17,107 nucleotides of DNA from Verrucomicrobiota bacterium (GCA_039818205.1 JBCBUK010000029.1:1-17107), one strand, 5' to 3'; positions 4,955 through 14,132 are shown, counted from the stretch's first letter. Notes: generated by a model not told the origin, from the letters alone. Translations and numbers: made by a program.

Positions 4955-5111
4955 TTAGGCGGGAAAAACTCTCATCCAGGCTAGCAAGACGGCGCTCTGT
5001 TGAGTGTCTTACTACTGATAGTCGAATCCAGGAAAAGACCCGGCAAATAGTTGCTACCGATAGCCCAACACTCACAAAAACGAGAATGACAATCACTAGC
5101 TGCGCGACCAT
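4929..5111 (-). CDS. Small single-pass membrane protein
   Basis: Hydrophobic N-terminus (LVIVILVFVSVGLSVATIC). GGAG RBS. Overlaps neighbours. Confidence 0.6.
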   Translation of the reverse strand: MVAQLVIVILVFVSVGLSVATICRVFSWIRLSVVRHSTERRLASLDESFSRLIDGADHDC

Positions 5112-5293
5112 AACTCCTCCTTTGGGAGTAAGACTCCCTTAACAGTTTCTAGGTGATGATTAAGCACTAGTGAAATGATCTGAGAGGCATCGATACCGGT
5201 TGCCGTCGATAGCTCGGCCAGTTCATCCCATTGGGCGCGCTCAAGCTGGATCGACCGGCGAACGCCGTCTTCGTAACGCTTGGTTCTAGGCAT
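5096..5293 (-). CDS. Ribbon-helix-helix DNA-binding protein
   Basis: MPRTKRYEDGVRRSIQLERAQWDELAELSTATGIDASQIISLVL: alternating beta strand, helix, G-turn, helix (CopG/Arc pattern). Start ATG 5293. Confidence 0.72.
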   Translation of the reverse strand: MPRTKRYEDGVRRSIQLERAQWDELAELSTATGIDASQIISLVLNHHLETVKGVLLPKEELWSRS

Positions 5294-5480
5294 CGGGATT
5301 TCGAGTTGGAGCGGCGGCCAGGTCAAAAACTTCAACCTCTTCGTGCGCGCTTAGTTCTTGTTCCAATAGGCATTTTGCCAGTTCCTCTGGCGATCTACCC
5401 AGCTTCGCACTCGTCTCCTCAAGTTGACACATCAACTCGGGACTCAATTCAAAATCGATAGAATTGTTTTTCCGGTGCAT
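5286..5480 (-). CDS. Ribbon-helix-helix protein in the Cro position (first gene of the early operon)
   Basis: SIDFELSPELMCQLEETSAKLGRSPEELAKCLLEQEL fits the RHH pattern. Confidence 0.7.
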   Translation of the reverse strand: MHRKNNSIDFELSPELMCQLEETSAKLGRSPEELAKCLLEQELSAHEEVEVFDLAAAPTRNPDA

Positions 5481-5562
5481 TATTACACCGCTAAAGGTTC
5501 ATTAAAGAACCGTCAAATGAAAAATTGACTTTGCACCAAAAAAGCGCATTATCGGTGCATAA
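5473..5562. promoter_or_regulatory. Divergent promoter/operator region of the genetic switch
   Basis: TTGACT (5525-5530, +) with CATTAT 16 bp downstream. TTGACG on the - strand (5516-5511). CGGTGCAT at 5473 and 5553, inverted TACACCG (5484) and TGCACC (5532), and palindrome GGTTC-N6-GAACC (5496-5511). Confidence 0.7.
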
Positions 5563-6156
5563 ATGGGCAGAAAAGCACGATTCAACAATCCCAAGCGATT
5601 CTCACTTTCCCTCGAAAGCGAGATGCTTGAACGCCTAGACTCCCTTGCTCAGGAATACAGATTAGAGCGCAATCAGTTGATCGAGCGTTTACTAAAGCGA
5701 GCTCTTGACGAGCTCGGAAACGAGGACCCGTTCGAACTGACCTCGTCAGAATCCCAGGAGCTACTGACTAAGTTGAGCGGCAGAACATCATCCGCTAATG
5801 CCAAAAACCTTAGTGCATTGAATGGAATGGAGTCAGATTCGCTTCCCGGCAAATCAACGCCTTATGCCCCTTACATTCGACCAGGCGAAAGCAGCGAAGA
5901 ATTTTCCGAGCGATTCCGCAACGAAAACACGCCGGAAGAAGCGGCACTCATTTGGAGTGTGCCCGTTGAACGCGCCGCAAAGCTACTCAAATACAAGGTC
6001 ATCCCGGACGATGTTTTCCTGTCCATCGAGCAGATAATGGAAGAACAACAGTGTAACGCAGAAACAGCCATGAAGTTCTTTTTGAACTATCGGGCATTCA
6101 AATCTAAGAAAAAGAAAAGTGCCTCGGCTGCATTGTCCAAGGCACTTGCGAAGTAA
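5563..6156 (+). CDS. Putative immunity repressor: N-terminal RHH plus unknown C-terminal domain
   Basis: RFSLSLESEMLERLDSLAQEYRLERNQLIERLLKRAL is RHH-like. Divergent from the early operon (CI position). No S24 autopeptidase motifs. Confidence 0.68.
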   Translation: MGRKARFNNPKRFSLSLESEMLERLDSLAQEYRLERNQLIERLLKRALDELGNEDPFELTSSESQELLTKLSGRTSSANAKNLSALNGMESDSLPGKSTPYAPYIRPGESSEEFSERFRNENTPEEAALIWSVPVERAAKLLKYKVIPDDVFLSIEQIMEEQQCNAETAMKFFLNYRAFKSKKKKSASAALSKALAK

Positions 6157-6170
6157 CTATTTATCAGCCC

Positions 6171-6290
6171 CTAGAATCCGCTCGGGAACGACGGCCACGC
6201 CTTTGTTTCGACGGTCGGCAGGTCTGGTGCCGAGCGGTAGCCGAGGTTATAGGTTGCGGTCTGAAACAACGCAGTGAGTATTTTTTTCAT
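6171..6290 (-). CDS. 39-aa small ORF coupled to the sensor kinase (candidate signalling-peptide precursor)
   Basis: Below the ORF-track cut-off. ATG (6290-6288) overlaps the kinase stop as TAATG. MKKILTALFQTATYNLGYRSAPDLPTVETKAWPSFPSGF, TAG at 6173-6171. Fills almost the whole gap to the convergent repressor gene. Confidence 0.55.
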   Translation of the reverse strand: MKKILTALFQTATYNLGYRSAPDLPTVETKAWPSFPSGF

Positions 6291-9200
6291 TATTGATGCT
6301 TTTGTGTGTTGGATGTTGATGTGGAGCCAATCTTATCAGGAACCTTCAAGATCAGCTCAAAGTAGAAAATCGCTCCGGCGGGCGTATTGTCTTTGATTTC
6401 CAAACGGCCGCCCATGCCAGTAACGAGCATTTGCGACAGATAGAGACCAAGACCGAGGTTTTTCTTGTCTTCACTGGTTGAAAAGTAGTCATCGAAAATC
6501 TTTAGTTTGAGGTGATCGGGGACGCCACCGCCGTTGTCGTGGACAGCAATCCGCAACCGCGCCTTATCCGCAGCGAGCTTCTCCGAGGAAAAATAAACCC
6601 TCACCAGTCCGAGATTGTCCATGAGGCTGGCGTGGCGGATTGCATTGCTGATAAGGTTGCTAACTACCTGGAAAATCTTGTCGCGGTCTCCACGAAAATC
6701 GCTCACCGGCAGCTGCTCCGCCTTCCACGGAATTTCAAATACAACGTTTTGTTTTTCCGCCTTTGGCTCATACACCTTCATGAGATCCAGCGCCAGGTAG
6801 TATGCATTGAAATCAACGTCGCGCAGCACCATTTTCCCGTCGACGATACGCGGAAACTGAATCATCCCGGAAACTAGCTGCATCGTCGTATCGAGCAGGT
6901 CTTGAACCTTTGCGCAATGCATCTGCGCCACTGGATCAGGCTTAACTATTTCATCAATCAAATAGACAGTCGCTCGAGCCGCATTGATCGGTTCCCCGAC
7001 CTCGTGCTTCAAGGCACGCAACATCCTGTTACCGGACTCTGAGGCCCGTTCGAAATTGCGATCATCCTGCTCGATCGTTTCCTTGAGTCGAGCATTCTCC
7101 AATCGGCGCGGAATACCGACCAAGAAGACCAACCCGACAAACCCACCAATGCCGATCAGACCTGCACCGGTTAGTGTGTACCATTTCAGATACCAGGGCG
7201 CGAGAATGGTTATTGCATAAGCCGAAACCTCGCTCAAGTTGCTAGAATCATCACGCGCCTGAAGCTCTAGCACGTATTCACCCGGCCAAAGACTAAAAAG
7301 GTTACTTGCGGGTTCAGAAGTAAATTCAGACCAATCTTGGCCGGCGATGCGCCAGCGATATGTGACTGGGCGATCAACCGCAGTTGAAGTAGGATGGTTA
7401 ACGGCTATGTGCTGAGCCGGAAACATCGTGACGATATTGTCTAGCGGTAAGAGTTCGCTGGAAGCCTCAACGGAAACGAGCCGCGGCGGAAGCGTCGTCG
7501 GAGTATCAAATACTTGCGGTGATTTGTATTCGATCATGCCGTTACCGGCGATCAAGAAAAGCTCACGCTCGCGATCATAGGTTACAAATCGTATCGGATC
7601 TGCTGCCTCAGCCTGCGGTAACGCATAGTCGGTTTTCCTAAACCCAGTTCCAATAAGCTCCAACCGCCTAAACCAGTAGAACCCCTCGCTGTCTGAGAAC
7701 AGGACCCAGGCCACGCTTTCACTTTCTACGGCGGCGTGAATTGTGTATGGGTTTGGATGGAAAAAATCTTCGTCGAGTGCGTTCGTTCGATAGAACGACT
7801 GTCGATTTGGGTCGTAAAAATAAAGGCCACGGTTGCACAGCACTGCCAATCGATCACCAAACATGAACGGGCGTGCCCAAAGCAACTCCTCCTGACCGAA
7901 ATTGTACGGCGAAACAATCACGAGGTCGATATCCTCCGCCGAATCCGGGTTGTCACTCGTAAGCGTTCCCCGCCACAACCCGTCCTTCGTTGACCCAAAA
8001 TAAAAGGTCTTTTCATTTACGCGAACAAAGGATGCCGGATTCTGCCAATCGACCTCAACGAATCGCCCAAGTTTCTCTATCTTGTCAGTAATACGGAAGA
8101 GTTGCATACCGGACACGCCGTAGCCGAGATAGATGCCAGGAAATTCGCTAAGCGGTAGCAACTGAATAATTCGAGCGATATTCGGCAGCTCGATCTTGGA
8201 ATTAGATCCTAACAACTCAACTTCCCAAAGGCGATTCACTACATAGGTATCGCCGACGGGCGCCATACCAACAAGGAAACCCTCGCAGATCTTCTCGACA
8301 TTTCCGTCTTCATAGCGAAATCCACCACTTTGCGCCGAAATGAGCGTTTGTCCATCGGCCCAGGGAAAAATCGAAGCGACCAAACCGATCCCGTGAAAGC
8401 GAGTATCCGTATCAATGCGAATCAACCCATTACTAAACGATGCCCACACAAAGCGGCCAGCGATCCGAGCGCTCCACATGTGCCCAGCACCAGGCTCAAC
8501 ATGATAAATACGCTCAAGCGACTCGCCATCTTGAAAGAACAGAGAATCAACACCAACGACCAAATACCCATCACGCCACGGTTTCACATCAAAGACGGTT
8601 ACACCGAGCGAATAATCCAGCTCGAAGCCATTACCACCAAGCGATAGCACGTTGCCTGAGAACGTGTAAAACTGGAGCTTACCATCAGTCAGCATGACCT
8701 CAATAATTCCTTCTCGGATCAGGTCATCATCAGGATATTCCAAAACAAATTTGCTCCCGTCCCAGCGGTTAAGACCGACCTTTCTTTGATGGACCCACAG
8801 CTCACCATCAATCACATATGATAGCAGTCGATACGAATTCGGCATCGGCCAAACCGTCACATCAGTCCCATCCCAAACAAACACATGCGTATCCCCAACC
8901 CAAAAAACTGATTCACCCAAAACATGGAGATTCCATACATTTGAGGGAATCGCTGGGCTATTTACGATGCGATCAATTAGCGACGTGTATGAAAAACTTC
9001 CGTCGACCATTCTTTCAACGTAGCCAATCTGACTCACCGCTCCGACCCAGATGCGACCATCCGGTCCAAGTACTAGCGACATAACCGTGTTGCCGTGATC
9101 AATATCAACCACCTCGAAAGATTCACCATCGTAGAAAAGCAACCCATCATTACAGCCTATCCAGACGAAACCGTCTGAGTCCTCGATCGTCATACGCACA

Positions 9201-9319
9201 TCATCCAAGAAAGGATGATCCTCACCGTCGAATGTCTTGGCTAAATAATCTGCTATCAATTCAGAACCAAACAAACACAAGACCATATTAACGACCCACA
9301 GTCGGAAAAAGAAACGCAT
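6290..9319 (-). CDS. Sensor histidine kinase with periplasmic beta-propeller and Y_Y_Y domains
   Basis: Signal-like N-terminus. Reg_prop-like repeats (IEDSDGFVWIGCNDGL; LGPDGRIWVG). Y_Y_Y (TYRWRIAG..WS...LWPGEYVLELQARD). TM after APWY. H-box LKHEVGEP, N-box NLISNAIRH, G1 DNGGGVP, F KIFDDYFST, G2 LGLGL. Confidence 0.95.
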   Translation of the reverse strand: MRFFFRLWVVNMVLCLFGSELIADYLAKTFDGEDHPFLDDVRMTIEDSDGFVWIGCNDGLLFYDGESFEVVDIDHGNTVMSLVLGPDGRIWVGAVSQIGYVERMVDGSFSYTSLIDRIVNSPAIPSNVWNLHVLGESVFWVGDTHVFVWDGTDVTVWPMPNSYRLLSYVIDGELWVHQRKVGLNRWDGSKFVLEYPDDDLIREGIIEVMLTDGKLQFYTFSGNVLSLGGNGFELDYSLGVTVFDVKPWRDGYLVVGVDSLFFQDGESLERIYHVEPGAGHMWSARIAGRFVWASFSNGLIRIDTDTRFHGIGLVASIFPWADGQTLISAQSGGFRYEDGNVEKICEGFLVGMAPVGDTYVVNRLWEVELLGSNSKIELPNIARIIQLLPLSEFPGIYLGYGVSGMQLFRITDKIEKLGRFVEVDWQNPASFVRVNEKTFYFGSTKDGLWRGTLTSDNPDSAEDIDLVIVSPYNFGQEELLWARPFMFGDRLAVLCNRGLYFYDPNRQSFYRTNALDEDFFHPNPYTIHAAVESESVAWVLFSDSEGFYWFRRLELIGTGFRKTDYALPQAEAADPIRFVTYDRERELFLIAGNGMIEYKSPQVFDTPTTLPPRLVSVEASSELLPLDNIVTMFPAQHIAVNHPTSTAVDRPVTYRWRIAGQDWSEFTSEPASNLFSLWPGEYVLELQARDDSSNLSEVSAYAITILAPWYLKWYTLTGAGLIGIGGFVGLVFLVGIPRRLENARLKETIEQDDRNFERASESGNRMLRALKHEVGEPINAARATVYLIDEIVKPDPVAQMHCAKVQDLLDTTMQLVSGMIQFPRIVDGKMVLRDVDFNAYYLALDLMKVYEPKAEKQNVVFEIPWKAEQLPVSDFRGDRDKIFQVVSNLISNAIRHASLMDNLGLVRVYFSSEKLAADKARLRIAVHDNGGGVPDHLKLKIFDDYFSTSEDKKNLGLGLYLSQMLVTGMGGRLEIKDNTPAGAIFYFELILKVPDKIGSTSTSNTQKHQ

Positions 9320-9698
9320 CTAACACCTCTACAAAAAATTGATCATAGGCATGATCCTTGGACCACACCGCCTCAAAACCCAAACCCAACAGACCATCCG
9401 CTTCACCGTCATGCGAAGTCAGTACAGCAAATCGGGGCATCTTCGGTATGCACGCTTCATCAAAAAAATACTTAGCCTTAAAGAAAAGACTACGCGCATC
9501 ATCCATGCCCAAACGGAAATCGGAAATAACCACGTCATATTGCCCATTTCGGACAAGGTCGACCGCATGATCGACCGTATAGCTCAAGTCAGGCGTTATC
9601 TCAAAGTTCCGCTTCAATAACAGCGCCACAAATTGCGCAAACTCCTTGCGGTCCTCTAAGATTAAAACATTCACGGCATAACGATGCGCCAATATCAC
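9288..9698 (-). CDS. Single-domain response regulator (REC only)
   Basis: VLILED acidic pocket, YDVVISD phospho-Asp, VLTS Thr, WSK Lys. No output domain. Start is GTG 9698 or GTG 9674. Confidence 0.88.
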   Translation of the reverse strand: MILAHRYAVNVLILEDRKEFAQFVALLLKRNFEITPDLSYTVDHAVDLVRNGQYDVVISDFRLGMDDARSLFFKAKYFFDEACIPKMPRFAVLTSHDGEADGLLGLGFEAVWSKDHAYDQFFVEVLDAFLFPTVGR

Positions 9699-9814
9699 GC
9701 CGTAATCACGCCTTCAAAACCCTCGAATTTGAGGGGGCATTATCATTGCCCCGTATCATCCTGTAAGCTACCGTCTCCGCGAGTTGTTTGGGGACGACTT
9801 ATCTTAAAATTACT

Positions 9815-9842
9815 TAACCCTCGGCTTTCGGGCCGGGGGTTA
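9815..9842. terminator. 12-bp hairpin with UUCG loop (terminator-like or RNA structural element)
   Basis: TAACCCTCGGCT-TTCG-GGCCGGGGGTTA. Two G.U pairs work only on the + strand. No strong U-tract. Confidence 0.5.
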
Positions 9843-9890
9843 TTCACAGCTACCCCACGCGCGCATACCAACCTTAATAAAGAAATTTTT

Positions 9891-10487
9891 ATGCCCAATC
9901 TCCTCTGGAACGGTCCATCAACCATTCAAAGCCGAACATATACCTGCGGAAACTGCGGGACCTATATCTCATCAAATCAAGGGTATAGCGCATACCTACC
10001 CGGAAGCCCAATGCAGTATGAAGACGCAGCTATTGCGATTTGCCATAGGTGCGCTTTTCCTACTTTCTTGGGTGTCAACGGAGAGCAAGTTCCTGGCGCG
10101 CGCTATGGCAACGATGTGGCACACATTACTGATGAAAAAATCGAGCAGTTGTATCAAGAAGCCCGTGATGCTACCGGTTCCGGCTCCTACACATTAGCGG
10201 TTTTAGCCTGTAGAAAACTACTGATGCATATCGCGGTATCCAAAGGTGCAAAAAAAGGGGAATCGTTCGCACAATACGTAGATTATTTATCTGAAAACAA
10301 TTTTGTGCCACCAGGTGCTAAGCCGTGGGTTGATCACATAAGAAAGAAGGGGAACCAGGCAAATCACGAGATTGTATTGATGGAAAGAGAAGAAGCCGAA
10401 GATCTCATCACATTCATACATATGCTTCTTACAGTGATCTTTGAACTTCCAGGCACCATGCAAAGTAGATACCCTTCCACTGATTAG
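9891..10487 (+). CDS. DUF4145 (HEPN-family) protein with N-terminal Zn ribbon
   Basis: CGNCG...CHRC. LYQEA...SYTLAVLACRKLL. HEPN Rx4-6H motif in IRKKGNQANHE. Start moved to ATG 9891. Confidence 0.85.
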   Translation: MPNLLWNGPSTIQSRTYTCGNCGTYISSNQGYSAYLPGSPMQYEDAAIAICHRCAFPTFLGVNGEQVPGARYGNDVAHITDEKIEQLYQEARDATGSGSYTLAVLACRKLLMHIAVSKGAKKGESFAQYVDYLSENNFVPPGAKPWVDHIRKKGNQANHEIVLMEREEAEDLITFIHMLLTVIFELPGTMQSRYPSTD

Positions 10488-11055: not shown

Positions 11056-11973
11056 ATGGCAAACAAGAACTCAAAGACCGACGCTTACCAAATCGTAACC
11101 GACCGCGTAATACAGCTAATGGAGCAAGGAACCTGCCCATGGCATCGACCATGGCACACCTTAAATGCCGCTCCAAAGAACTTTCACTCAGACCATCAGT
11201 ATAGTGGAATCAACTGGATACTGTTGAATGCATTGGGATTCGAAATCCCGTTTTTCATGACGTTCAAGCAGGTAAAGGATCGCAAAGGCAGCATCCGGAA
11301 AGGCTCAAAGGGGCTCCCAGTGGTTTACTGGAACTTTGTAAAGCGCATCGATGAAAGCGGTGAAGAAAAGAAGATCCCGTTCCTAAAAACCTACAAAGTA
11401 TTCAACTGCGCTGATATTGAAGGAATCGAATTCCCCTGCCCTGAGTTACCCTCCCGAGAATTCAATCCGATTGAAGCCGCCGAGAAAGTGATTCAAAACT
11501 GGAAGGACTGCCCACCGATCAAACATGGTTCCAACCGCGCATGCTACCACCCCGACGACGACAAAATTGCCATGCCCAACAAGAGCCGATTCAAGAGCGA
11601 CCAAGAATACTATTCGGTCATGTTTCACGAAATGGCCCACGCCACCGGTCACCGCTCCCGCTTGAAACGCCTAAAGCCAGCAACTTTCGGTTCGAAAAAC
11701 TACGGCAAGGAAGAATTGGTGGCCGAAATGACAAGCGCCTTCCTTTGTGCTCACTGCGGAATTGATAATTCGGTTATCGAGAATCAAGCCGCTTACCTGA
11801 AGTGCTGGATCAACACACTAAAAGGCGATCCTCGTTTGATTATTACGGCCGCAACAGCAGCTCAAAAAGCTGCCAACTATATTCTCAACAAGACGCCTGC
11901 AGACCAATCCACCCCAGCCCAGAACGATAGAACGGAACCTCGAACTGAACAACTAGATCTGTTCGCTGCCTAG
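11056..11973 (+). CDS. ardC: ArdC-family antirestriction protein (ssDNA-binding DUF1738 plus zincin-like MPTase)
   Basis: YQIVTDRVIQLMEQGTCPWHRPW, YSGIN, FMTFKQ, IRKGSKG, YKVFN, FHEMAHATGH (HExxH), YGKEELVAE, AAYLKCWI. Confidence 0.95.
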   Translation: MANKNSKTDAYQIVTDRVIQLMEQGTCPWHRPWHTLNAAPKNFHSDHQYSGINWILLNALGFEIPFFMTFKQVKDRKGSIRKGSKGLPVVYWNFVKRIDESGEEKKIPFLKTYKVFNCADIEGIEFPCPELPSREFNPIEAAEKVIQNWKDCPPIKHGSNRACYHPDDDKIAMPNKSRFKSDQEYYSVMFHEMAHATGHRSRLKRLKPATFGSKNYGKEELVAEMTSAFLCAHCGIDNSVIENQAAYLKCWINTLKGDPRLIITAATAAQKAANYILNKTPADQSTPAQNDRTEPRTEQLDLFAA

Positions 11974-11976
11974 AAC

Positions 11977-12037
11977 GTCGAAACGGGGCTTGAGCCCCGT
12001 CTGCCAGGGTGGCATCCTGACACTGACGAGACTGCCA
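11977..12037 (+). ncRNA. Type II hammerhead ribozyme with pseudoknot
   Basis: GTC-GAAA-CGGGGC(TTGA)GCCCCG-TC^-TGCCAGG(GTGGCAT)CCTGACA-CTGACGA-GAC-TGCCA. Intact GAAA and CUGAnGA core, GUC cleavage triplet (11999-12001), stem II GTC/GAC. The 3' tail TGCCA is complementary to loop I TGGCA. Confidence 0.92.
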
Positions 12038-12065
12038 ACTGAATACAAAGCAAACATATTTCGCC

Positions 12066-12319: not shown

Positions 12320-12571
12320 ATGCCAGCACCAGAAAATAACGATTACGCCGCAGGCATCCCGGGTCAGAACCGGGATGCTAATTGCCACTTTCGAACCTAC
12401 AGAACGCGAAAGGGAGCTTACAAATTGGCCAGCGAACTAGTAGGCGAAAAACTCACACCTTGGATTGAGCATCATCTCGACGACCCGGCGATTCGCATTC
12501 TCAGAGAGCGCGGCCGGGATGATGTAGCTGACGCGCTCCAGGCCATTATCGACGCTGAAGCCTCACGCTGA
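12320..12571 (+). CDS. Small putative RHH-like DNA-binding protein
   Basis: NCHFRTYRTRKGAYKLASELVGEKLTPWIEHHLD resembles the strand-helix-G-helix pattern. Last gene of the ardC operon. Confidence 0.55.
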   Translation: MPAPENNDYAAGIPGQNRDANCHFRTYRTRKGAYKLASELVGEKLTPWIEHHLDDPAIRILRERGRDDVADALQAIIDAEASR

Positions 12572-13759
12572 ATTGGCACTTCTCCGAACGGCCACCGGAG
12601 CGCGCGCTGGGATCGCCTTGACTAGGCTTGCATAGTGTTTCTCCGCTACTGCCACACTGTCACGAAGCGCCGTTGCGGCCGCATAGATCCCGTGATCCGT
12701 CGCTATCTCTGCCCCGAACTGCTTGCGTAACTCATGCAGCTTCTTCCGGCGCTCTGGTAAAAATTGAGCAACCCACTGGCACGCATCCCGGGCAATCAGG
12801 TTGTGCCGTTCGGTCTTCGTCTTGCCAGGAATCACGTATGCCGTTGGGCTCTCCGGCGGGCAAAGTTGTTGCCAACGGGCGAAAAGACCACGGTCGACCG
12901 CAACCCACCCCTCAGTTGCTTTTGGTTCATACTCCTCAAGCTCGCGCTCAACATCGGCCGCACGGTAAAAAATGCCGAGATGTAGCCCCGCGTCGCCGCG
13001 ATCGTCGAACCAATGCCACCGCAACCCCTCTATTTCACTGGCTCGCAGTCCACAATAGCGGGCCAGCTCAATCACAACTAGCAACCGCACGTCGTCGGCC
13101 TGGTTCGTAGCCAACGATTCATCAAGCTGAGCCATCAGGTCTGGCGGGATGGGGCGAAAGCGTTGATCATGCTCCTCTAACCGAGGAACCGCCAGAAAAT
13201 CGTCAATGAAAGGCAGGTTGAAACCATGATAAAGCTCCCGCCGAGCGACCTTAGAAAAAACATGCTGTGCACTGGCCAGGGCCGAATTCAGGCTCGCATT
13301 CAGCCTTTTGCCCGCCTCGGGTTGTTCACCCCGCTTGCGGCGCCGCCAGTCCAGCACAAACTCTTTACTCAAAACATCGGCCTTTACCTCAGTAGGTTCT
13401 AGCTTCGGATACATCACCTTAACGGCTCGCAAGAGCGCCTGAGCATTATCTAGAGCGGTCTTGGGCTTGATGTTGCTATGCTGGCCAACCTCCGCGACAT
13501 ACCGGTCAACAACTTCACCAATCGTCGGCACACCGTCGAGACGTTTTCGCTTCGGCGTGCCGTCTGTCGCCATCCCCATTTCATCTAAATAAATCTGATA
13601 GCCGATATCGCGCGCCGTGGGCTCATGAGTAGAACCTGTCGATCTACGAATTTTTCTCTCGACACGACGCCCAGCTTTTTCTTCATAGATCCTTTCCTCA
13701 ACATAGAAGACACCCTTCTTACCACGTTTTTGGAGATGCAACTCTTTCTTACCTTTCAC
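12563..13759 (-). CDS. int: Tyrosine recombinase / phage integrase
   Basis: N-terminal arm-binding-type region (VFYVEER...RRSTGS). Catalytic R (CGLRASEI), K (EPKAT), HxLR (LHELRKQFG), Y (EKHY). GTG start. Adjacent to the att site. Confidence 0.92.
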   Translation of the reverse strand: MKGKKELHLQKRGKKGVFYVEERIYEEKAGRRVERKIRRSTGSTHEPTARDIGYQIYLDEMGMATDGTPKRKRLDGVPTIGEVVDRYVAEVGQHSNIKPKTALDNAQALLRAVKVMYPKLEPTEVKADVLSKEFVLDWRRRKRGEQPEAGKRLNASLNSALASAQHVFSKVARRELYHGFNLPFIDDFLAVPRLEEHDQRFRPIPPDLMAQLDESLATNQADDVRLLVVIELARYCGLRASEIEGLRWHWFDDRGDAGLHLGIFYRAADVERELEEYEPKATEGWVAVDRGLFARWQQLCPPESPTAYVIPGKTKTERHNLIARDACQWVAQFLPERRKKLHELRKQFGAEIATDHGIYAAATALRDSVAVAEKHYASLVKAIPARAPVAVRRSANSA

Positions 13760-13805: not shown

Positions 13806-14132
13806 TTGGCGACAAATTGGCGGCGGATTTGGCGACAAAGTCAAGGTTAAAGAACCGCCTCCAGGTTACAGTGGATCGCTCAGGAAAATTCGTTGACGAA
13901 GCAATAAACGCTAAATATCAACGACTTACATCACTTTTATAAGTTTCGGGTCGGTAGCTCAATCGGTAGAGCAGTTGCCTTTTAAATAGGTATCCCGTTT
14001 ACGACGGATTGCGAGCATTTACCAAGTTATCGCTATATCAACGACTTATGAAATTGCAATTCCCAGAAGGATGCGAGGAATTGCGACGAAACTATCCATT
14101 ATTCGCCAAAAGGTGTATAAAAAGGTGTCCAA
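13806..14132. other. attP: arm-type repeats, two IHF sites and tRNA-derived core
   Basis: TTGGCGACAAA at 13806 and 13829 with TTGGCGGCGGA between. IHF consensus WATCAANNNNTTR matched as TATCAACGACTTA at 13916-13928 and 14036-14048. AAAAGGTGT at 14108 and 14120. tRNA fragment in the centre. Confidence 0.85.
13948..13985 (+). tRNA. 5' half of tRNA-Lys(UUU), nt 1-38 only (att identity block, not a complete tRNA)
   Basis: GGGTCGG-TA-GCTC-AATCGGTA-GAGC-A-GTTGC-CTTTTAA: acceptor 5' strand, full D arm, anticodon 5' strand and 7-nt loop with TTT. Similarity stops exactly after the loop (ATAGG instead of GCAAY). No T-arm follows. Confidence 0.9.

Follow-up and report, generated by a model that had tools for sequence, protein, structure and literature searches.

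To our knowledge, phages are known to base decisions on chemical signals in only a handful of systems, nearly all of which belong to Firmicutes (arbitrium and the Agr-bearing phages) or rely on cytoplasmic receptors in vibrios. Here we describe a signalling cassette found in the first 17,107 bases (hereafter, the window) of C29, a 21.9-kb contig of the 4.85-Mb assembly of a marine Verrucomicrobiota bacterium (GCA_039818205.1, JBCBUK010000029.1:1-17107). In this stretch, a temperate phage-like element carries the genes of a stand-alone receiver (REC), a sensor histidine kinase and a 39-residue peptide (pep39), which run together towards the gene of a repressor-like protein. Comparison with sister elements of the same assembly and with a peptide locus of the host suggests a plausible reading, although we hold it with a little less than even confidence: that the phage senses a peptide matured by its host and relays the signal to its own repressor.

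Three phage systems are the nearest precedents. Clostridioides difficile phage phiCDHM1 carries agrD, agrB and agrC (PMC7790227) and, like the element in C29, is a temperate phage with a peptide precursor of host type and a membrane histidine kinase but an incomplete host pathway. phiCDHM1 has a Gram-positive host, a polytopic AgrC kinase, a phage-encoded maturase (AgrB) and no response regulator, whereas the module in C29 has a periplasmic propeller sensor, a diderm host, a phage-encoded receiver and a maturase (YcaO) that the phage does not encode, and it abuts a repressor with a dedicated extra domain. With two predicted transmembrane (TM) segments and a large periplasmic domain, the phage kinase is also unlike the polytopic AgrC. 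No AgrB, AgrC or AgrD Pfam family was found among the window open reading frames (ORFs) scanned, which were pep39 and those of about 60 aa or more, and the locus is thus not an Agr system. Arbitrium (AimP/AimR/AimX of Bacillus phages) shares with the C29 locus a small phage peptide gene beside the lysis-lysogeny control, alleles that differ by phage, and the idea of density sensing (PMC7790227). The arbitrium receptor is a cytoplasmic transcription factor and the peptide is exported by Sec and taken up through Opp, with no kinase, whereas pep39 has no signal sequence and belongs to a family of precursors associated with YcaO, and its locus includes a two-component pair. No AimR or TPR family was found among the scanned ORFs; the system may work like arbitrium even though it is not a member. 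Finally, the VqmA-Phi protein of vibriophage VP882 is a phage copy of a host quorum-sensing receptor with which the prophage listens to a host-made signal (PMC10426928). The receptor is a cytoplasmic receptor-transcription factor, and VP882 is not known to carry a signal gene or a two-component system.

Other parallels lie outside phages. In the hybrid two-component systems of Bacteroidetes, a large periplasmic region of Reg_prop propellers and a Y_Y_Y-like domain is followed by a TM segment and the kinase core (PMC3243724), which is also the architecture predicted for the phage kinase; these systems adjoin a TonB-dependent receptor, as do the host-type loci described below. They are chromosomal, bind oligosaccharides and carry a fused receiver and an AraC output, whereas the phage kinases have neither a fused receiver nor an output, and their partner is a peptide gene. 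The host enzyme that could mature the peptide resembles the YcaO pathways for ribosomally synthesized and post-translationally modified peptides (RiPPs), such as microcin B17 McbBCD, cyanobactin LynD/TruD and the archaeal thioamidating YcaO, in its YcaO fold and in the conserved leader and hypervariable, sometimes repeated, core of the associated peptides, and differs from them in its short length (~300 aa). CheY, Spo0F and DivK are single-domain response regulators which, having no output domain, act by protein contact or as a phosphorelay step. The phage REC is likewise a receiver without an output domain, and differs from these proteins in an insertion of about ten residues after the phospho-Asp region. 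As described in the sources cited, none of the nearest precedents (phiCDHM1, arbitrium, VP882) joins a periplasmic propeller kinase, a stand-alone receiver, a YcaO-family precursor without its enzyme and a repressor with an extra domain. Our literature searches, supplementary files aside, turned up no account of this phage module or of the YcaO/propeller-kinase system of the host, nor of any YcaO system linked to a propeller kinase.

Results

A conserved module that converges on the repressor gene

The cassette and the neighbouring repressor-like gene comprise the following features, in window coordinates:

9288..9698, minus strand: stand-alone receiver REC; longest ORF 136 aa from GTG 9698, likely start GTG 9674 (128 aa)
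6290..9319, minus strand: sensor histidine kinase, 1009 aa (Pfam, NCBIfam, TM prediction, alignment of copies)
6171..6290, minus strand: pep39, 39-aa peptide gene, homologue of a host RiPP-type precursor
6157..6170, no strand: spacer between convergent stops, 14 nt (pep39 stop 6171, RHH197 stop 6156)
5563..6156, plus strand: RHH197, repressor-like protein (RHH_1 22.9 bits; phrog_876 'transcriptional repressor', E 4e-4)
5845..6156, plus strand: RCD, orphan helical C-terminal domain of the repressor-like protein, common to the repressors of all elements

ORF calls bear out the first-pass annotation of this DNA, which had described a minus-strand set of REC, a 1009-aa kinase and a 39-aa ORF coupled by TAATG: the genes overlap and are all intact, the REC ORF extending 31 nt over the kinase start and the kinase stop sharing one base with the pep39 start in TAATG. 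The distance of 14 nt between the stops of pep39 (6171) and the repressor gene (6156) is also correct; it leaves no room for a terminator, and the element on C13 has a spacer of the same 14 nt. The bounds originally given to the cassette are right to within a few bases, except that the end at 9712 lies some 14-38 nt too far, just inside an upstream in-frame stop (9714-9716).

The arrangement recurs in other contigs of the assembly (C1, C3, C5, C11, C13, C28, C29, C30, C33, C54 and C58 are all contigs of this assembly). It is found on C13 and C1, where an integrase links it to chromosomal genes, and on C33 and C30, which end inside the kinase. The kinase and peptide genes converge on a repressor gene in all five prophage-like elements examined, with a kinase-to-peptide spacing that ranges from a 1-nt overlap to a 25-nt gap and peptide-repressor stop-to-stop distances of 14-74 nt, and REC precedes the kinase in all three elements in which the 5' end of the kinase is assembled. 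As a module conserved in five diverged prophage-like elements, the cassette is more than the lone captured moron that the first-pass annotation had kept as its fallback. The co-occurrence of REC, a coupled small ORF and a ribbon-helix-helix (RHH) switch, which it had proposed as a check, is seen for the kinase, peptide and repressor in every element and for REC in the three where it is assembled; it does not extend to the RHH fold, since the repressors on C13 and C30 are of the S24 type. The exclusive association of the module is with repressors that bear the RCD.

A peptide gene shared with the host

The names given to homologues assign the host to the genus Cerasicoccus. The peptides have a YNxGxRS motif in the leader part and end in P-[ST]-x-P-[CST]-x-x, in which Cys, Ser or Thr occupies the third position from the C-terminus in every Cerasicoccus-type copy. 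Seven copies exist in the assembly (the five phage elements, C3 and the short contig C54), and there are more in genomes of the same family, which together with the substitution pattern establishes the small ORF as a genuine peptide gene, as had been supposed. pep39 is 79% identical to the chromosomal C3 peptide; the two genes differ at 29 nt, 21 of them in third codon positions, and of the altered codons 15 are synonymous and 8 non-synonymous. Judging from this pattern, pep39 is a real gene under purifying selection. A nucleotide-level repeat in place of a gene was also considered and is ruled out by the third-position bias. With a peptide profile, copies were detected in 6 of 41 related genomes: they occur in four of the five other genomes of the genus and in one other genus of the family, and in none of the 26 genomes from other families.

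In C29 and C13, the final ~30 nt of the kinase ORF show homology to the untranslated leader that the peptide gene has in the host, which indicates that this gene was taken up together with its leader and joined on behind the kinase. In the C33 and C30 elements the peptides are longer, at 57 aa (L006 1841-2014 and L007 17016-17189); in them the conserved F-P-C-E-V motif is internal and is followed by a tail rich in Pro, Lys and Asp, whereas the 39-aa forms end at the motif. A second host-type peptide, 74% identical to pep39, is encoded at C54:31-851, divergent from the N-terminus of a propeller kinase, on a contig of only 894 bp, and is either a second chromosomal locus or a strain variant.

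The host locus and its candidate maturase

The chromosomal relative of pep39 belongs to a larger locus:

C3:249453-258059 (L004 6454-15063): host locus with hybrid kinase, peptide, predicted YcaO-fold enzyme, TonB-dependent receptor and LuxR/GerE regulator

Here the peptide gene (39 aa) lies between a divergent hybrid kinase of 1311 aa (Reg_prop, Y_Y_Y, HisKA, HATPase_c and receiver) and a 306-aa protein, and the TonB-dependent receptor and LuxR/GerE response regulator come next. The 306-aa protein scores 23.2 bits with Pfam YcaO, which is borderline (cut-off 25.7). When its structural model (pLDDT 91.7) was compared with the PDB by Foldseek, the 39 matches listed with E<=1e-3 were to YcaO enzymes, including McbD, archaeal YcaOs, LynD, TruD, E. 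coli YcaO and a YcaO peptidase. On the strength of this model, the host enzyme is predicted to have the YcaO fold; a sequence-profile search of the PDB with an alignment of this mini-YcaO family gave no match.

The locus is conserved among Cerasicoccus relatives: the kinase-peptide-YcaO core is syntenic in all five relatives' loci fetched, with the TonB receptor and regulator adjoining it in two and placed elsewhere in a third. Of 401 genomes sampled from the phylum, 31 contain the mini-YcaO family, and these belong to a single order. By reading of the loci, 28 of the 30 fetched have a small same-strand ORF that ends within ~145 nt upstream of YcaO, with a hydrophobic N-terminal leader and a hypervariable tail, and a propeller kinase starts within the 1.5-kb flank in 23. 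Tandemly repeated cores, a hallmark of RiPP precursors, are present in the upstream ORFs of at least four of the 30 loci, in other genera, and the family as a whole has the conserved leader and the variable core with a modifiable residue that characterize precursors. The precursor-like ORFs at L060, L068, L059 and L066 contain 2-4 tandem repeats of a short core, which in L060 is a 9-residue Cys-containing unit repeated four times, and many precursors in other genera have Sec-signal-like N-termini ending in an Ala-x-Ala-like site. No E1-like, dehydrogenase or TfuA partner genes were seen in the YcaO loci looked at.

Considered as a whole, the host locus looks like an undescribed signal system of the RiPP type, and it is a candidate for an undescribed RiPP-based signalling or uptake system in its own right. 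The linkage of the peptide to this kinase subfamily in the chromosomes of several genera makes peptide sensing a reasonable reading. YcaO and precursor are neighbours at the host locus and not inside the phage elements: the only YcaO gene of the assembly is on C3, and the phage elements carry none, so that maturation of the phage peptides would depend on the host. The suggestion that the phage senses a self-made peptide therefore survives in part. The phage does encode a precursor, but this is homologous to that of the host and comes without a phage YcaO, and the signal is probably host-matured and shared.

A deep phage clade of propeller kinases

The kinase is predicted to consist of an N-terminal TM or signal segment, a periplasmic propeller/Y_Y_Y-like domain, a second TM segment, the dimerization and histidine phosphotransfer (DHp) domain and the catalytic domain; the TM-like segments, at residues 4-23 and 714-740, would place about 690 aa in the periplasm. 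The catalytic part is a GHKL ATP-binding domain, with a Pfam HATPase_c score of 66.9 bits (cut-off 26.4), and NCBIfam kinase models align over residues 755-1002. The N, G1 and G2 boxes and His772, about 30 residues past the second TM segment, are invariant in all five phage copies, and Pfam HisKA gave no match to the kinase at E<=1. In the sensor half, Reg_prop is recognized at 24 bits (cut-off 20.4) and matches three of the five phage copies. The Y_Y_Y match (residues 652-704) stays below its cut-off of 26.6, at 14.8 bits and E 0.028, while the homologous C3 host kinase reaches 31.5 bits; among remote homologues of residues 30-720, PF07494 and PF07495 occur together in most and at least one of them in nearly all. 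The phage kinase has no fused receiver, unlike that of C3.

The five phage kinases are only 24-49% identical to one another and the module has nevertheless been kept, which suggests that it has survived a long divergence. In a quick tree they form one deep clade apart from six host hybrid kinases (SH-aLRT 100), an indication that phages have carried the module for a long time. A profile of the sensor's membrane-proximal half gives 380-444 bits for the five phage copies and at most 101 bits for everything else. The top 15 matches outside the phage copies comprise 12 kinases adjacent to YcaO, two with a TonB receptor and regulator, and one alone. By these profile matches, the phage kinases belong to the same subfamily as the YcaO/peptide-linked host kinases. 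Propeller-kinase matches in general were found in 72 of the 401 sampled genomes, often several per genome.

For the receiver, GTG 9674 is the likely start because of homology with the C13 copy. The window REC remains below the Pfam Response_reg cut-off (18.4 against 30.2 bits), and the C1 copy, 28% identical to it, scores 34.7 bits. An alignment of three phage and two host receivers shows that the acidic Asp D8, the phospho-Asp D52 (in ISDF) and K106 are invariant and that the T/S position is kept, as expected of a receiver.

An orphan repressor domain and its exchange with the peptide

RHH197 is built from a ribbon-helix-helix (residues 12-49), a linker and the C-terminal RCD. The N-termini of the repressors vary among the elements, being RHH-like on C29, C1 and C33 and a helix-turn-helix (HTH) with S24 (cI/LexA-like) on C13 and C30, and the RCD, of about 100 residues, ends all five proteins whatever their DNA-binding type. 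A sixth RCD is present as a fragment with which contig C28 begins, and there it terminates a further S24 repressor. The domain was found in one of 16 genomes of the family, which is this assembly, and an RCD profile run against 1.84 billion representative proteins yielded nine matches, six from this assembly and three in repeat proteins that we regard as spurious. A model of the RCD (pLDDT 74.9) has about six helices; fold searches with it gave nothing significant (best E 1.2 with Foldseek against the PDB, best E 0.54 against BFVD, best Z 2.6 with VIA-align), and the top non-significant rows are HTH or repressor-like proteins.

Between C29 and C13, the stretch ~5850-6300, which comprises the RCD, the 14-nt spacer and pep39, is 86-100% identical in 50-nt bins, and mostly 92-100%. 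Identity on the left flank is 32-50%, and on the right it is 74% and then 50-68%. C28 carries the same RCD allele (93% nt). The survival of this conserved block amid diverged flanks suggests that RCD and peptide move as a unit between phages with different DNA-binding domains and sensors. The RCD is a candidate for the receiving end of the cassette's signal. Its presence in all the repressors, irrespective of their DNA-binding type, lends indirect support to the first-pass suggestion that the output goes by contact with the repressor's C-terminal domain.

A conserved region upstream of the cassette

The cassette is preceded by a further conserved feature:

9680..9843, minus strand: conserved non-coding region at the 5' end of the cassette (blastn comparison of C29, C13 and C1)

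When C29, C13 and C1 are compared by blastn, this region of ~165 nt, which lies upstream of REC, shows 70-87% identity (mean column identity 79%), whereas the adjoining REC and kinase have only 25-50% protein identity among the same three. It contains a GC-rich hairpin (~9817-9841) and then a sigma-70-like promoter match (9767-9739). Only these three copies exist in the genome. The region has no family match in Rfam and no 8-mer in common with the intergenic regions of the host peptide or receptor genes, and it has a single 8-mer in common with the phage switch region.

Divergent from the cassette, at 9684-10487 on the plus strand, lies a gene for a DUF4145 protein with a likely start near 9891; the first ~70 codons of the long ORF, which overlap the 5' region, are probably non-coding. 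The protein matches the PD-T7-4 single-gene anti-phage defence model (PADLOC, E 1.2e-8) and phrog_1305, which would make its gene a defence gene carried by the prophage. PADLOC had no match for REC, the kinase, pep39 or RHH197, and the idea that the cassette itself is a defence system was dropped.

The phage element and its occurrence

The remaining features that define the element are these:

12563..13759, minus strand: tyrosine integrase (phrog_1, E 5.8e-16)
13948..13985, plus strand: 38-bp copy of the 5' half of tRNA-Lys(UUU), likely attachment-site core, 100% identical to the C5 tRNA-Lys gene and the C11 site
5336..5562, no strand: divergent switch region between RHH197 (plus strand) and the early leftward genes (gene layout)

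The tRNA-Lys half is matched at C5:2252-2289 and C11:70304-70341. Phage-like lysis and tail-side genes lie on the side of the tRNA-Lys copy away from the integrase, and this order of integrase, tRNA-Lys copy and lysis/tail genes indicates that C29 has the attP arrangement of an excised or circular element, not that of an integrated prophage end. The early leftward genes at the switch include a 64-aa ORF (5286-5480) and an RHH_4 protein (5096-5335). C29 further encodes an excisionase-like HTH protein, small RHH proteins at the divergent switch, DUF5131, ArdC and lambda-like minor tail proteins, the minor tail genes lying beyond the window on the same contig (phrog_396, E 1.9e-44, and phrog_329). 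The early genes of the sister elements include exonuclease VIII, RecT, RusA, a sliding clamp, a clamp loader, a primase, a replication O-like protein, methyltransferases and S24 repressors. An integrase with an att core, a switch, and replication, recombination and tail genes identify a temperate (lambdoid-like) prophage; no capsid or terminase gene was seen in the stretches examined. A type II hammerhead ribozyme match (Rfam RF02276, 40.3 bits, gathering score 37, E 2.5e-5) occupies window positions 11976-12040 on the plus strand, directly after the stop of the ArdC-like gene (11056-11973).

The left end of the window (positions 1-77), positions 1594-1789 and further short stretches recur with 94-100% identity at the ends of other contigs (the C13 end, C58, C11, C1 and C33), which suggests that the assembly broke at sequences common to related prophages and makes any count of the elements, and any judgement of their completeness, approximate.

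A scan of IMG/VR gave no match with the kinase protein, the RCD or the peptide, and only six loci with the kinase alignment, all matching the generic catalytic domain. JGI metagenomes scanned with the RCD gave no match either. In GenBank phages, tblastn with the kinase returned 33 records, none of which covers more than 39% of the query. The close matches of the sensor part among 5.8 billion proteins are the window protein and the C13 copy only. This phage group is so far known from this assembly alone.

Discussion

The best explanation of the cassette is that it is a phage-resident branch of the host peptide-signal system, which has kept the precursor, a kinase without a receiver and a separate receiver. 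In the mechanism that we propose, pep39 would be made in the lysogen or the infected cell and matured by the single host YcaO, probably at the invariant Cys, Ser or Thr near its C-terminus, and release would follow. The mature peptide, whether phage- or host-made, would reach the periplasm and be read there by the propeller domain of the kinase, which would then phosphorylate the stand-alone REC. Because REC has no DNA-binding part, it would act by contact, and its best candidate target is the RCD carried by every repressor of this phage group. By tuning the repressor, the signal could set the maintenance or induction of lysogeny according to the density of the host or of kin lysogens. In a variant of this scheme, the peptide itself would be the direct ligand of the RCD, with which it travels as one recombination block.

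These elements could be combined into a more ambitious picture, which we offer tentatively and consider doubtful as it stands: a form of phage communication in diderm hosts in which the phage supplies the precursor and the periplasmic kinase, the host supplies YcaO, and REC or the peptide delivers the signal to the RCD. Each co-resident prophage would have its own set of alleles, with an exchangeable peptide/RCD pair, and beneath them would lie an undescribed Opitutales-like quorum-type system of the host, in which a RiPP signal would be combined with a TonB receptor, a propeller kinase and a LuxR-type regulator.

Several observations weigh against the proposed mechanism. The peptides of C29 and C13 are identical and their sensor domains only 47% identical, which speaks against a strict co-variation of peptide and sensor, the check that the first-pass annotation had proposed; the alternatives are that the sensors recognize some conserved feature or that pep39 is not what they recognize. 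pep39 has no predicted signal peptide, TM segment or signal-like hydrophobic stretch, and no exporter was found in the cassette. Propeller/Y_Y_Y sensors of known ligand bind glycans (PMC3243724). The near-identical block of C29 and C13 includes neither REC nor the sensor, and fits a pairing of peptide and RCD better than one of REC and RCD. The interval between integrase and repressor is also the usual site in temperate phages for accessory genes that have nothing to do with the switch. As to sampling, the elements with the cassette all come from one assembly, possibly metagenome-derived, in which only C13 and C1, both joined to chromosomal DNA, are certain to reside together in one cell, and relatives of the phage module are absent from IMG/VR, GenBank phages, the JGI metagenome scan, the 5.8 billion proteins and the 401 sampled genomes.

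The alternative that survives best, which we nevertheless consider unlikely, is a module of lysogenic conversion that acts on the host, adding a sensor and a precursor to the host peptide circuit, and whose position beside the repressor is simply the usual place of accessory genes. REC may then be a phosphate sink, or a bridge to the host hybrid kinase and LuxR-type regulator. In favour of this explanation, the phage carries some of the parts of the host system and relies on the host YcaO, and a kinase without a fused receiver accompanied by a separate REC is what a split phosphorelay entering a host pathway would be expected to look like. The neighbouring genes, moreover, are of an accessory kind (the PD-T7-4-like defence gene, ArdC and a lipoprotein). 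Conversion leaves unexplained, however, why every repressor of the group should carry an orphan RCD that our searches found nowhere else, why the RCD and pep39 move as one block, and why the kinase and peptide genes converge on the repressor in five of five elements while the accessory genes around them differ.

Somewhat less probable again is a kinase that senses a non-peptide cue, such as an oligosaccharide or a change in the envelope, with pep39 serving as a cytoplasmic ligand of the RCD in the manner of arbitrium, or as a small modulator of the kinase. The glycan ligands described for this sensor class in PMC3243724 speak for such a cue, as do the identical peptides beside sensors that are only 47% identical, the exact coincidence of the exchange block with RCD plus pep39, and the many propeller kinases that members of the order carry (72 of 401 genomes). 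Yet the nearest relatives of the phage kinases are specifically linked to YcaO and a peptide (12 of the top 15 outside the phage copies), and the genes for peptide and kinase lie side by side in 23 of the 30 host loci as well as in all five phage elements. A decaying or selfish passenger, presently functionless, would suit elements known from one assembly only, but is highly improbable given long ORFs that are intact in five copies diverged to 24-49% identity with invariant catalytic residues, purifying selection on the 39 codons of pep39, and a conserved 5' region proper to the cassette.

If the proposed relay from a host-matured peptide to the repressor is correct, a phage repressor can be placed under the control of two-component sensing, phages can leave the maturation of their signal to a RiPP enzyme of the host, and the RCD would be identified as a new repressor-attached domain that serves as the point of input. 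The presence of several diverged copies in one assembly, together with the clean peptide/RCD exchange block, provides natural allele swaps with which specificity could be tested. For the bacteria themselves, the phage module would be the first functional handle on a widespread and undescribed set of mini-YcaO, precursor and propeller kinase in marine and soil Verrucomicrobiota.

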